From a virus: a stretch of 32,080 nucleotides of DNA. The notes below the pieces were generated by a model. That model had not been told where the DNA came from, ran no database searches, and saw only the letters and a list, made by a program, of their open reading frames with translations. Below are positions 9,882 to 27,916 of the stretch, piece after piece. Position numbers and translations under genes: made by a program. The stretch spans positions 1 through 32,080 of the IMG/VR virus record IMGVR_UViG_3300030108_003561. One strand, written 5' to 3'. Numbering within the stretch: the stretch's first letter is position 1; each line of letters opens with the position of its first letter.

Positions 9882-11033
9882 CTATCTATCATTAAATAAT
9901 TTTTTCTTGATCTGTGTTGCTATGATTCTAACAATAGAAACAGTGACTGCGTTTCCAGCTTGCCTGTATCTTTGCCTATCTGATATTTCAATAATTTCAT
10001 TATCTAATATACCAAATTTATTCCAATTGTCCGAAAATCCTTGCAATCTATTGCATTCTACTGGAGTTAATCTTCTTATTCCAGTTTTAGAAATAGTAAC
10101 TTGATGATTAATTGTTTCTAATGTTTGAGATTTTTGCTTTCCTACTCTTCCTCTTCTTGTTTTAGATGTGGGCCGTTCTAAATTTATTGTATCACCTAAT
10201 CCAGCCTCAGCAAAACCTTTAGAATTTGGTTCAGATATTTTATACAATCCTGTTTTTGCTCCAAGACCTCCGCCCTCACTGTTTAAAGTTGATGATAATC
10301 CTTCAGGGTCATAAACTCTTCCCCAAATTGAATTATGGCCTTTTGTATCTATATTATCAATTTTTTTTAATTTAGCCTCAATCATTGTTCTTTTTCCGTC
10401 TGCTCCTTTATGGTAATTACTGTCGAGTCCTTTGACCAGCCTGTTTTTTTGTTTAAATCCATCTTGTCTAATGCTTCCATTGATTTTTCTGATAGGAAAT
10501 ATTTTTGCTCTACCTCTTCTTCCAAAATATCCAACAATATAAATCCGCTCTCTATGCTGAGGGAGTACGATGCTAGAATTAAAAACTTGGCACTCAATGG
10601 TATAACCAAGCTCGGCAAGTGAATTAAAGATGATAGCAAACGTTCGTCCATCATCGTGACTAAGTAAGCCTTTAACATTTTCGAGTAAAAAACAGGGGAT
10701 TGGCTTTTGATTTCTGATGAAATATCGCAGAATCCGTATAATTTCAAAAAATAAGGTACCTCTGCTGTCATAAAATCCTTTTCTTTTTCCGCTTTGTGAA
10801 AAGCTTTGACAGGGAAATCCCGCTGTAAGGATGTCAATGAAAGCTGGCAAATCTCTTTTTGGCTGAATAGATTTAATGTCTCCAAGATTTATTGCATCCT
10901 TGTAATTATATTTATAAACAGCATTTGCATATTTATCAACATCGCTATACCCAACCCAATCAAATTTAAAGCCAGCTTTTTCAAACCCTTTATGAAATCC
11001 TCCAACGCCACTAAATAAATCCAATAGTTTCAT
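9882..11033 (-). CDS. DNA (cytosine-5)-methyltransferase
   Basis: All conserved C5-MTase motifs are present in order: I LFSGVGGF, IV GFPCQSFSQSG, VI ENVKGL, VIII QHRERIYIVG, IX RRLTPVECNRLQGF and X YRQAGNAVTV. No adjacent restriction endonuclease was recognised, so it appears to be an orphan methylase. Confidence 0.95.
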   Translation of the reverse strand: MKLLDLFSGVGGFHKGFEKAGFKFDWVGYSDVDKYANAVYKYNYKDAINLGDIKSIQPKRDLPAFIDILTAGFPCQSFSQSGKRKGFYDSRGTLFFEIIRILRYFIRNQKPIPCFLLENVKGLLSHDDGRTFAIIFNSLAELGYTIECQVFNSSIVLPQHRERIYIVGYFGRRGRAKIFPIRKINGSIRQDGFKQKNRLVKGLDSNYHKGADGKRTMIEAKLKKIDNIDTKGHNSIWGRVYDPEGLSSTLNSEGGGLGAKTGLYKISEPNSKGFAEAGLGDTINLERPTSKTRRGRVGKQKSQTLETINHQVTISKTGIRRLTPVECNRLQGFSDNWNKFGILDNEIIEISDRQRYRQAGNAVTVSIVRIIATQIKKKLFNDR

Positions 11034-26042: not shown

Positions 26043-26480
26043 TTAAGAATCCTTTACAATTTCAAAATGACATAGGTCGTCAAATCCATTATCTGCGGTA
26101 GTTCTTACTTCTCTTCCCATCATTACATCTATATCAAGGCTTGGAGATGACCAATCACCGCCCCAGCGAATATTAACGCCCATCATTGCAGAAACTCCTA
26201 AAACAAACCCGCCAAGCATATGCCAGTCATCTCGATTTGACCAATCTATTTTGCGAGTTCGAAAATCATATGGTGCTATATCTACGGCCAACCCTTGACA
26301 ATGTTTCCCAAACTTAGTCTTTGATTTACCTTGTTTTACAAGTTTATTCTGTCTTTCTTGACTTCTTAATCCCTCTATCACAGTTATATCATAGTATTTT
26401 ACTACTTTTTGTAAAACTGCCACCAATCGAGGGTCAACGCCTTCTAGTCTCTTCATGCTTCTTCGACCAAGTTTGGGCAT
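26043..26480 (-). CDS. Endolysin, peptidase M15 (VanY / L-Ala-D-Glu peptidase type)
   Basis: EGLRSQERQNKLVKQGKS...GKHCQGLAVDI...DDLCHFEI gives the H-x-x-x-x-x-x-D ... H zinc-ligand pattern of M15 cell-wall peptidases. Confidence 0.85.
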   Translation of the reverse strand: MPKLGRRSMKRLEGVDPRLVAVLQKVVKYYDITVIEGLRSQERQNKLVKQGKSKTKFGKHCQGLAVDIAPYDFRTRKIDWSNRDDWHMLGGFVLGVSAMMGVNIRWGGDWSSPSLDIDVMMGREVRTTADNGFDDLCHFEIVKDS

Positions 26481-26482
26481 AA

Positions 26483-26710
26483 TTATTTACCTTTAAATAA
26501 TCCTTCAATTAAATCAGATAGTAGATCAACACAGCGTTCAAAGAACTCCTGTTCTTTACTTTCACTTACAAACGGTATATCTATCTTTTTATTAATCTTG
26601 CTTGCAAGCTCTTCCTGAAACTCATCAGATTGCACCCATTCTACAGCTTTTTGCTTAAATTGGTCTGCTTGAGATTCAGCTACTGCTAACATTATTTTTT
26701 TAAAATCCAT
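26483..26710 (-). CDS. Hypothetical acidic protein
   Basis: 75-aa ORF between a membrane protein gene and the endolysin. Confidence 0.6.
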   Translation of the reverse strand: MDFKKIMLAVAESQADQFKQKAVEWVQSDEFQEELASKINKKIDIPFVSESKEQEFFERCVDLLSDLIEGLFKGK

Positions 26711-26946
26711 TATTTTTTCTCCTTTAATGTCTCTTTTATTTCAGATATATCATTCATTATAATATCCAATTTATATTCAATAATTTTTCTATCAGCTTGA
26801 CTTTCTCTTTTATCTGTTTTTAAATCAAGTTCTTTTTTTATTGCATTAATATCATATTGCATAAATCCAAATGCCAATATGACAGAACAAATAAGAGTAA
26901 TAACTGTAATAATATTTTCAATTGATATATTTGTATTAAGCTTCAT
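26710..26946 (-). CDS. N-terminal TM anchor + coiled-coil protein (holin / i-spanin-class candidate)
   Basis: 78 aa. TM segment IITVITLICSVILAFGF followed by K/E-rich heptad-like sequence. Confidence 0.6.
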   Translation of the reverse strand: MKLNTNISIENIITVITLICSVILAFGFMQYDINAIKKELDLKTDKRESQADRKIIEYKLDIIMNDISEIKETLKEKK

Positions 26947-27263
26947 TAATTCTTGCCGTTTATTCTGCTAAGGCTTCCTTTTATTTCCGATACCTGATTG
27001 TCCAAATCATTAATTTCCTTCGTAAGCGAATCAAATTTTCTGTCAAGTTTGTCGTCACTCTGATTCCACCTCCCAATAAGCTTAATAACCATACTTTCCA
27101 TGTTCTCAAGCGTTTCACTTTGACCTTTATTTTCTATCTTTAGATTTTGCAAAGCTTCTTCCTGGGCCGACCCTCTTTTGTTCATAGAGTAAACCATATA
27201 AACTAACAAAGCCCCGACGACACCTATCATACCCGCTTCGCTGTAAATCGCCATAAAATCCAT
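26946..27263 (-). CDS. N-terminal TM anchor + coiled-coil protein (i-spanin / holin-class candidate)
   Basis: 105 aa. TM segment AGMIGVVGALLVYMVY followed by a long predicted coiled coil. Confidence 0.6.
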   Translation of the reverse strand: MDFMAIYSEAGMIGVVGALLVYMVYSMNKRGSAQEEALQNLKIENKGQSETLENMESMVIKLIGRWNQSDDKLDRKFDSLTKEINDLDNQVSEIKGSLSRINGKN

Positions 27264-27364
27264 TATTTTTTTTCATTTCTTTTTTTCTTGCAAGCCTGGC
27301 AAATTGCACCATAAGCAATTAAGATTGATTTTTTGCAATCAATGCATTTATAAGCATCTTTCAT
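27263..27364 (-). CDS. Possible 33-aa Cys4 mini-protein (not in ORF track)
   Basis: Hand translation gives MKDAYKCIDCKKSILIAYGAICQACKKKRNEKK (CxxC-x11-CxxC). Codon use is A/T3-rich, and it has a TAATG junction with the next gene. The RBS is weak. Confidence 0.4.
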   Translation of the reverse strand: MKDAYKCIDCKKSILIAYGAICQACKKKRNEKK

Positions 27365-27458
27365 TTTCCAGCTCTACGCAACTCTCTATTAATAAAATAA
27401 TTATGTTCAATGTCATCTAATTGTATATTTAAATCTTCTTCCCACCAATTATAATGAT

Positions 27459-27803
27459 TTATTTTCTTCTTTTTTTCTTTCCCCATGATAAGGGATTTAG
27501 TGATAAATTTAATTCTTTTTGATACCATTCTAATTTTTCTTGCATTTCAGTTATTTTTACTTCTTCTTCTTTTATGTGCTTTTCTACAAGTTCTTCAATG
27601 TCGGAATTAGCAAGTTCCATTCTTCGTTCAAGTTCTGCAATTCTATTTGTAATTTCCAAGTATCCATAAATAACCGCAAAGATTGCAATAAGCAGCTGGC
27701 CAAGCCACTTGATATTAATATGAACGGAAAAGTTATCATCAATAATTCCCGTTTTAACGCTTCTTGCCGTCTGCGGTTTGTAGTCTTTTTCATCAGGATT
27801 CAA
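27459..27803 (-). CDS. TM + coiled-coil protein with a basic C-terminus (holin / i-spanin-class candidate)
   Basis: 114 aa. TM segment WLGQLLIAIFAVIYGYL, coiled coil, and a C-terminal KKKRRK. The start is TTG, overlapping the upstream stop (ATTTGA). Confidence 0.6.
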   Translation of the reverse strand: MNPDEKDYKPQTARSVKTGIIDDNFSVHINIKWLGQLLIAIFAVIYGYLEITNRIAELERRMELANSDIEELVEKHIKEEEVKITEMQEKLEWYQKELNLSLNPLSWGKKKRRK

Positions 27804-27916
27804 ATCTCATAACCCATTATTGACCAGCTTCCATCGCAGGCTGTCAAAATAAATGTTAAAAAAAATAATGATACAATTATTATGATTTTCATTAAATCTG
27901 TGTAGTCTTTTTTCAT
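27800..27916 (-). CDS. Mini-lipoprotein, 38 aa (not in ORF track)
   Basis: Hand translation gives MKKDYTDLMKIIIIVSLFFLTFILTACDGSWSIMGYEI. It has a signal peptide with lipobox L-T-A-C. Codon use is genome-typical. The ORF exactly fills the gap between two genes, with a TAATG junction upstream and a stop overlapping the next start. Confidence 0.55.
   Translation of the reverse strand: MKKDYTDLMKIIIIVSLFFLTFILTACDGSWSIMGYEI

Follow-up and report, generated by a model that had tools for sequence, protein, structure and literature searches.

How many proteins are encoded around a single stop/start junction upstream of a phage endolysin gene, and of what kind are they? The question is raised by the window analysed here, the whole 32,080-nucleotide (nt) stretch of IMG/VR virus record IMGVR_UViG_3300030108_003561. 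In it, a gene for a 114-amino-acid (aa) protein with a transmembrane (TM) segment and a coiled-coil domain is preceded by a 38-codon open reading frame (ORF) for a predicted lipoprotein and carries within itself, in the +1 frame, an embedded ORF of 69 aa (Table 1). An earlier note on this stretch had located both ORFs, with coordinates and sequences that hold throughout, and had likened the overlapping pair to the Rz/Rz1 spanins of Gram-negative phages. The evidence below leads to another interpretation, in which the locus is, on balance, probably a tightly coupled membrane module of the lysis region of a marine tailed phage, with three products: a micro-lipoprotein, an N-terminally anchored coiled-coil protein and a small membrane protein encoded by overprinting. 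For comparison, 186 related loci were collected and reduced to 140 distinct versions of the 114-aa gene, to which all counts out of 140 refer; L004, L021 and similar labels denote relative loci, and WIN denotes the window.

The +1 frame within the 114-aa gene

The embedded ORF starts at ATG 27793, two codons past the TGA of the lipoprotein gene, 10 nt downstream, in the +1 frame of the gene at 27459-27803, and reads MKKTTNRRRQEALKRELLMITFPFILISSGLASC... In the window the +1 frame runs for 71 codons without a stop, whereas resampling the synonymous codons of the main gene according to genome-wide or within-gene usage predicts about 22 (p<=2e-4). The same resampling in 12 diverse relatives gave p<=0.01, mostly <=4e-4, and the test proved calibrated in a control over 44 genes of the window. 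Conditioned on the main protein and on genome codon usage, the exact probability that codons 2-65 contain no +1 stop is 7e-5 in the window and 4e-7 to 7e-4 across 12 lineages.

Openness of this frame extends to every relative: 51-107 codons (median 72) in 140 of 140, compared with a median of 28 in the +2 frame and medians of 36-46 in the three antisense frames. Within the ORF, none of 1294 xTN codons followed by a purine is xTA, against 117 of 289 followed by a pyrimidine; elsewhere in the genome the share of xTA before a purine is 36%. Stop avoidance depends on context and reflects no general codon preference. The neighbouring TM+coiled-coil genes of the same loci, whose +1 frames are not kept open, provide a negative control. 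A start codon is likewise retained. Measured from the main start, it falls at +4 or +7 nt in 129 of 140 relatives (88 with GTG at +4, 35 with ATG at +7) and between -26 and +58 nt in at least 139, and a +1 start codon near the main start is also found in the 15 loci that lack an upstream stop/start overlap.

Taken together, these results argue firmly that the embedded frame is under selection to stay open, with a start codon. Selection of this kind implies translation, and the +1 frame is most likely translated. The caveat of the earlier note that the embedded frame could be a shadow ORF is overturned by the frame-specific stop avoidance in all 140 relatives. Another of its caveats, that hydrophobic stretches tend to stay hydrophobic on frame-shifting, does not account for the main hydrophobic segment of the embedded product in the window, LLMITFPFILISSGLASCLL, which is encoded by a polar juxtamembrane stretch of the main protein, IIDDNFSVHINIKWLGQLLI, and not by its TM helix. 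That composition alone holds the frame open, and that the small upstream ORF is a non-functional remnant, is extremely improbable: the hydrophobicity of the +1 product does follow from the main protein once stops are excluded, and the lipoprotein is dispensable in many relatives, but this explanation is contradicted by the per-lineage probabilities, by the frame and context dependence of stop avoidance in a frame open in every relative, by the negative controls furnished by other frames, neighbour genes and a whole-genome scan, and by the purifying selection on the mature lipopeptide described below.

Several observations weigh against a functional three-product module. Synonymous diversity of the main frame is not reduced over the overlap as a whole (0.74 vs 0.81, p=0.7) and stands at about 1.0 of expectation in three of four overlap segments. 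Once stops are excluded, selection for hydrophobicity of the +1 product is undetectable, its hydrophobicity being no greater than the main protein sequence gives. Over the same span, pairwise identity is 36% for the +1 product and 57% for the main product, and the flanking charges of the +1 product vary between clades. The first 20 codons of the +1 frame carry no statistical information on openness (P ~0.04-0.46). Amino-acid constraint on the +1 product is weak, and a specific function of the peptide would be an extrapolation from these sequences. Many relatives, moreover, have no lipoprotein or a version cut back to its cysteine or beyond, and protein-family, structure and atlas searches with the lipoprotein, 114-aa and +1 products returned nothing apart from weak coiled-coil-type matches.

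Constraint is nevertheless detectable in one part of the overlap. In main codons 51-66, which encode ..EEWNLLIP.. in the +1 frame, observed synonymous diversity is 0.50 and 0.69 of expectation in two clades (Mann-Whitney p=0.046 and 0.0012), against about 0.7-1.2 elsewhere. The earlier note had suggested conservation of the embedded frame and suppression at synonymous sites as a check: the frame is conserved throughout the relatives, and suppression is confined to these codons and does not extend to the overlap overall.

Weak amino-acid constraint, an uninformative first 20 codons and suppressed synonymous variation towards the end of the +1 ORF, possibly the mark of an RNA or slippage element, would also fit an explanation of the open frame that needs no separate functional protein, either a programmed frameshift joining the two frames or regulatory translation that sets main-gene expression after re-initiation at the NTGA overlap. 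Database proteins bear on this. When a profile of the +1 proteins was searched against 5.8 billion predicted proteins, just four matches were obtained, all of them frame chimeras or fusions and artefact-like; at least one of the chimeras resembles a single-base indel in a homopolymer run. At locus L192:93-443 (ENA contig k141_342711), which has the same gene order as the window, four substitutions change the TGA/GTG junction from TGAGTGGAAAAC to GGTGGGGAAACC (TGA to GGT), so that the short lipoprotein and the +1 ORF form one continuous frame of 116 aa and the main frame is left with no start codon. Such two-frame proteins could be taken in favour of a frameshift. Against it, virtually every relative has a start codon at the head of the +1 frame, including those with no overlapping gene upstream; no canonical slippery heptamer is apparent by eye, Rfam gives no match, and 50-100 open codons far exceed what a coupling device would need. 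We consider a frameshift or regulatory explanation unlikely, and return to the reading in which the frame encodes a small membrane protein.

Predicted character of the embedded product

The +1 product is 51 to 112 aa long. Its N-terminus is usually basic and is followed by one or two hydrophobic segments and by a tail that is charged, acidic in the clade of the window and strongly basic (..NISWKKGLKDKSWQKK) in the L021-type clade. In all 140 relatives, the most hydrophobic stretch of 17 aa has a hydropathy of at least 1.5. For three variants of the product, no holin homology was detected with Pfam or PHROG.

The earlier note had read the embedded ORF as a signal peptide followed by a lipobox, LASC, and the pair as an Rz/Rz1 arrangement. 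The first part stands for the window itself, where the lipobox rule given in the next section is satisfied with the cysteine at embedded position 34. The motif is not conserved: WIN is alone among 69 unique relatives in having a cysteine there, none of the 140 shares it in the alignment, and relatives read LSGLGK, LSGLFK, LSGFYK or NGWV at that place. Eight of 140 have a relaxed lipobox pattern, but it lies elsewhere in the alignment, within the second hydrophobic segment. Because the lipobox cysteine occurs in this window only, the family as judged from the alignments is one of small membrane proteins and not of lipoproteins, and the LASC motif is a one-off.

These data bear directly on a lambda-type embedded spanin pair, in which the 114-aa gene would be Rz-like and the +1 ORF an Rz1-like outer-membrane lipoprotein. 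The two systems share a +1 ORF lying wholly inside a gene for an N-terminally anchored TM+coiled-coil protein, within a lysis cassette; the window ORF begins with a rule-conforming signal peptide and lipobox, and its mature part would be 36 aa, near the 40 aa of mature Rz1 (PMC6139136). In contrast to lambda, the lipobox is not conserved across the family, the part of the host gene that is overlapped is its 5' end with the TM segment and not the periplasmic domain, and the product is a hydrophobic membrane protein and not a Pro-rich soluble lipoprotein; homology goes no further than a weak coiled-coil-type match. That the mature part is not Pro-rich had already been pointed out in the earlier note, correctly. 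What the family conserves is a hydrophobic hairpin, not a lipobox. A lambda-type pair is thus very improbable and largely refuted by the comparison, and with it the spanin interpretation first put forward for the embedded ORF. The earlier note had stated that its reading would fail if homologous genomes did not conserve either lipobox cysteine or the embedded frame; the cysteine of the upstream lipoprotein and the embedded frame are both conserved, the embedded cysteine is not.

The 38-codon lipoprotein gene and its coiled-coil neighbour

The product of the 38-codon ORF has the sequence MKKDYTDLMKIIIIVSLFFLTFILTAC followed by DGSWSIMGYEI, with a predicted mature peptide, CDGSWSIMGYEI, of 12 residues. 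Its ATG overlaps the stop codon of the upstream gene (TAATG). Lipoboxes were scored by a rule of the PROSITE PS51257 type, which asks for a lysine or arginine in the first seven residues, an uncharged hydrophobic stretch, the motif [LIVMF..][..][AGS]-C and a cysteine at 15-35. The 38-aa product fits, with the cysteine at residue 27; on the coding strand of the 32-kb genome, only this ORF and the embedded ORF do so. At its 3' end, the stop codon overlaps the start of the 114-aa gene. Such an NTGA overlap is present in 125 of 140 relatives, mostly as ATGA or GTGA, and the TTG start of the window aligns with the ATG of its closest relatives. Recoding of the TGA to join the 38-aa ORF with the embedded frame was considered and rejected: the large genes are all intact under translation table 11, and NTGA stop/start overlaps are the rule.

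What precedes the junction differs among the relatives. Short lipoproteins with a 12-residue mature part sit on the NTGA junction in 39 of 140, long lipoproteins of 70-95 aa occupy the same position in at least 25, five are ultrashort forms ending ..GSCV, and there are further forms without the cysteine; about half have an unrelated gene abutting the junction, or no ORF of this kind. In the alignment, the short forms match the long ones over the signal peptide and the first 11-12 residues of the mature part, cysteine and tryptophan being invariant (motif C-x-x-G-W-S), and the short form of L103 is 67% identical to the long form of L081 over their common part. From this alignment, the short gene is judged to be a truncated derivative of a family of 70-95-aa phage lipoproteins.

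The truncated gene has not decayed. All 28 long and short forms in the alignment have the lipobox cysteine, as do 26 of 26 unique coding sequences of the short form, the exception being a small sub-lineage cut off at or before the cysteine. In the 26 distinct coding sequences, the mature peptide reads C-D-S/G-G-W-S-V/I-A/V-G-Y-E-V; codons for Gly, Val, Ala and Cys turn over and serines swap between TCN and AGY while the residues are kept. The ratio of nonsynonymous to synonymous polymorphism (pN/pS) of the mature short peptide is 0.23 at a pS of 0.56, indicating purifying selection. These patterns identify the 38-codon ORF as a genuine conserved gene and not a dead stump, and bear out the original description of it as a lipobox gene.

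Residue +2 is Asp in 38 of 39 short forms and Ser, Asn or Gly in long forms. In E. coli, Asp at +2 retains a lipoprotein in the inner membrane, and by that rule the short lipopeptide would be kept there. One subclade of the 114-aa gene contains loci with a long lipoprotein (L081), with a short one (L096, L099) and with none (L106), so the lipoprotein is an accessory, dispensable component and not an obligate partner. An AlphaFold2 model of a long form suggests a small beta domain at low confidence (predicted local distance difference test, pLDDT, 67). The long forms carry a conserved C-terminal cysteine (NWC). A complex prediction between a long-form lipoprotein and the C-terminal domain of its cognate coiled-coil protein scored 0.00, which speaks neither for nor against binding.

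The 114-aa protein itself has a conserved polar N-terminus (..TARSY..DDN..S.N.KW) and a mean column identity of 64-68% (alignments A1 and A4). The TM segment at 33-49 and the charged helical C-terminal domain are evident from sequence and alignments. Its polybasic C-terminus, essentially invariant in all relatives regardless of what lies downstream, is unusual for a periplasmic end; together with its tryptophan, such a tail points to an affinity for nucleic acid or for the surface of an anionic membrane. The best family match is phrog_20984, a family of unassigned function (1.3e-8), and the Rz-like phrog_739 matches weakly (2e-3); no Pfam family passes its cut-off, and searches of PDB and Atlas gave nothing meaningful, the matches to tetratricopeptide repeats (TPR) reflecting a short repeated motif. 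More distant homologues on contigs of metagenome-assembled genomes, L188:3989-4315 and L190:3820-4146 (MAISKEDTARSYKG...), lie in a different gene context, lack the NTGA junction and have +1 runs of merely 24 and 15 codons.

A lipobox gene translationally coupled to a gene for an N-terminally anchored coiled-coil protein, near an endolysin gene, could also be a separated two-component spanin in reversed order, with the lipoprotein as outer-membrane subunit, the 114-aa protein as inner-membrane subunit and the +1 ORF as an extra; this arrangement could coexist with a three-product module. No further lipobox ORF is present on the coding strand of the genome, the C-terminal cysteine of the long forms resembles that of many o-spanins, and the Rz-like family match, weak as it is, points the same way. 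In spanin pairs, the i-spanin gene generally precedes the o-spanin gene. By that yardstick, a lipoprotein gene upstream of the coiled-coil gene appears reversed. Two-component spanins have periplasmic lengths of 62-300 residues, a range that accommodates the summed ~64+11 (~75) residues here, but about 96% of them have periplasmic cysteines (PMC6139136), and the presumed periplasmic C-terminal domain of the 114-aa protein has none, the short mature peptide having just its predicted lipidated cysteine. Nor is a partnership of this kind easily reconciled with the relatives: about half lack an adjacent lipoprotein, all three of its states occur in one subclade, some versions end ..GSCV or have no cysteine, the main C-terminus is invariant whatever the state of the lipoprotein, with no co-variation, and Asp at +2 would hold the short forms in the inner membrane by the E. 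coli rule. The chance that a separated spanin accounts for the locus is, in our estimate, small.

The proposed module in its lysis region

The three frames and their junction exist, are conserved and carry signatures of selection. From the sequences we infer that the +1 frame is translated, that the small protein is lipidated and that the products take part in membrane steps of lysis. In the mechanism that we propose for the three-product module, ribosomes terminating at the NTGA of the lipoprotein gene would re-initiate on the overlapping start and enter the main frame, or alternatively would restart on the GTG or ATG 4-10 nt downstream and enter the +1 frame. All three products would insert into the inner membrane and would take part in the membrane stages of lysis, alongside the M15 endolysin and the TM+coiled-coil proteins encoded downstream. 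In size and shape, the overprinted protein is the element closest to a holin. It might have a holin- or antiholin-like role, the anchored coiled-coil protein a spanin-like or outer-membrane-directed one, and the lipoprotein would be a dispensable accessory. A bolder version, in which one junction yields three membrane proteins, the ratio of restarts sets the timing of lysis, the +1 product is an overprinted holin-like protein and the lineage of the window has gained a lipobox, we regard as speculative and rather doubtful. Were it true, the overprinted protein of the window could be a snapshot of an Rz1-type embedded lipoprotein being born.

Elements of this arrangement are found in other lysis systems. 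Gene E of phiX174, the overprinted single-gene lysis protein of a single-stranded DNA phage, lies inside gene D. Like E, the embedded product is a short membrane protein in a +1 frame with an N-terminal TM segment, and the main frame is the more conserved; unlike the E-type single-gene lysis proteins, it belongs to a phage with a full endolysin-based cassette. Entericidins and colicin lysis proteins are very small lipoproteins. The 38-aa product shares with these and with Rz1 (PMC6139136) a classical signal peptide and lipobox and a very short mature peptide, but its 12-residue mature part is far shorter and is the stump of a larger domain protein that is still under purifying selection. In comparison with separated spanin pairs such as T4 PseT.3/PseT.2, the gene order is apparently reversed, the lipoprotein is often cut to 12 or 2 mature residues or absent, and the short system has no periplasmic cysteine. 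Shared with that pair are separate genes for a lipoprotein and a type-II coiled-coil protein, a long form with a small, predicted beta-rich domain and a C-terminal cysteine, and a periplasmic length within range (PMC6139136). According to the account in PMC6023083, which cites Loessner 1999, hol187 is overprinted in ply187; Ply187 has since been reinterpreted as a virion-associated lysin (PMC6023083). In that account, hol187 is likewise a small membrane-protein gene overprinted on the 5' part of another lysis-related gene of a double-stranded DNA phage, but the host gene is a different one, the bacterial host is Gram-positive, and there is no sequence relation. Overprinted genes in lysis cassettes are already known; what sets this case apart is an overlap at the 5' end with starts a few bases apart, a product that is a hydrophobic membrane protein and no lipoprotein, and coupling with a lipoprotein gene that has been miniaturised.

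The 32-kb window, a complete virus record, has terminal repeats, a G+C content of about 33% and every gene on the minus strand. The region lies between a tail-fibre gene and the M15 endolysin gene, which closes the cassette and from which the embedded ORF is 1.1 kb upstream. From upstream to downstream it contains an 89-aa ORF, the 38-aa ORF, the 114-aa gene, two small ORFs, a further pair of TM+coiled-coil genes (105 and 78 aa), a 75-aa ORF and the endolysin gene. By blastn and tblastn against 50,697 phage records, no cultured relative of the region was detected; a 545-aa protein of the window matches a short stretch of one Pelagibacter phage only (11% of its length, 44% identity). More than 545 IMG/VR contigs carry a homologue of the 114-aa gene. 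A few related genes come from contigs assigned by binning to Flavobacteriales, Fluviicola and Gammaproteobacteria, which makes a Gram-negative marine host likely. An Rfam scan and promoter and terminator scans of the region gave nothing above background.

Table 1. Location of the features discussed in the text
Feature	Position	Strand	Remarks
Mini-lipoprotein gene, 38 aa	27800..27916	-	Predicted signal peptide with lipobox LTAC, residues 1-27; Cys codon 27836-27838; TGA stop 27800-27802
TTGA junction	27800..27803	-	Sequence feature: TGA of the lipoprotein gene shares bases with the TTG start of the 114-aa gene
114-aa membrane protein gene	27459..27803	-	Polar N-terminus; TM helix ~residues 33-49 (27657-27707); charged helical/coiled-coil domain; C-terminus NPLSWGKKKRRK
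C-terminus NPLSWGKKKRRK of the 114-aa protein	27459-27494	-	Essentially invariant in relatives
Overprinted +1-frame ORF, 69 aa	27584..27793	-	Basic N-terminus MKKTTNRRRQEALKRE; hydrophobic residues 17-36 (27686-27745); amphipathic acidic tail; TAG stop
Cys-34 codon of the embedded ORF	27692..27694	-	Lipobox LASC (..SSGLASC); fits the PS51257-type rule in the window; lineage-specific
Reduced synonymous variation	27588..27635	-	Window main codons ~57-72, which are 51-66 in L004 numbering; last 16 embedded codons (..LQNLNEEWNLLIPTLKNL)
55-codon ORF, -1 frame	27361-27528	-	Overlaps the final 23 codons of the 114-aa gene across an A-rich run (GGGAAAGAAAAAAAGAAGAAAA); internal ATG 27486
33-aa ORF	27263-27364	-	Two CxxC pairs (MKDAYKCIDCKK...CQACKKK); mini zinc-ribbon-like; inside the cassette
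Two further TM+coiled-coil genes, 105 and 78 aa	26946-27263, 26710-26946	-	Between the 114-aa module and the endolysin gene
M15-family endolysin gene	26043..26480	-	phrog_465 endolysin, 8.6e-39; Pfam Peptidase_M15_4 above cut-off

Other frames of the cassette were also considered. The +1 frame of the 105-aa gene has a 50-codon run in the window (p=0.001), which is probably lineage-specific since it is kept in just about 20 of 65 relatives; the run of the 78-aa neighbour is kept in 1 of 22, and +1 openness as a property of the whole cassette was rejected. So was an antisense ORF of 90 codons on the plus strand (27540-27812), which is not conserved, antisense medians being 36-46 codons. The -1-frame ORF at the end of the 114-aa gene encodes a C-terminal peptide (..DDIEHNYFINRELRR) that is conserved in many relatives, and the ORF is absent from the L021-type clade; its openness is not significant by itself, and an own start or a slippage-based C-terminal extension of the 114-aa protein are the candidate alternatives. 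The 33-aa ORF with paired cysteines has sub-threshold Pfam matches only. Elsewhere in the genome, the C5 DNA methyltransferase gene (9882-11033, minus strand) contains an inner +1 ORF (10382-10885, minus strand) of 168 codons against about 48 expected on resampling (p<0.001), which makes it the one further outlier of this kind among 44 genes; PHROG returned no match, and the single relative found is near-identical.

Overlapping genes on the same strand are routinely missed by annotation, and the comparative evidence for this one is unusually clean, combining an open frame in every relative, frame- and context-specific stop avoidance and internal negative controls. A textbook-looking embedded lipobox can, as here, be a lineage-specific coincidence, which calls for caution in motif-based calling of spanins. 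The relatives also preserve a natural series of shrinkage of the lipoprotein, from about 65 through 12 to 2 mature residues and then none, in which the 12-residue stage would rank among the smallest lipoproteins known. Marine viromes, whose lysis genes are poorly understood, contain the 114-aa family in abundance, and its +1 product is a candidate for a hidden lysis or membrane protein of these phages.

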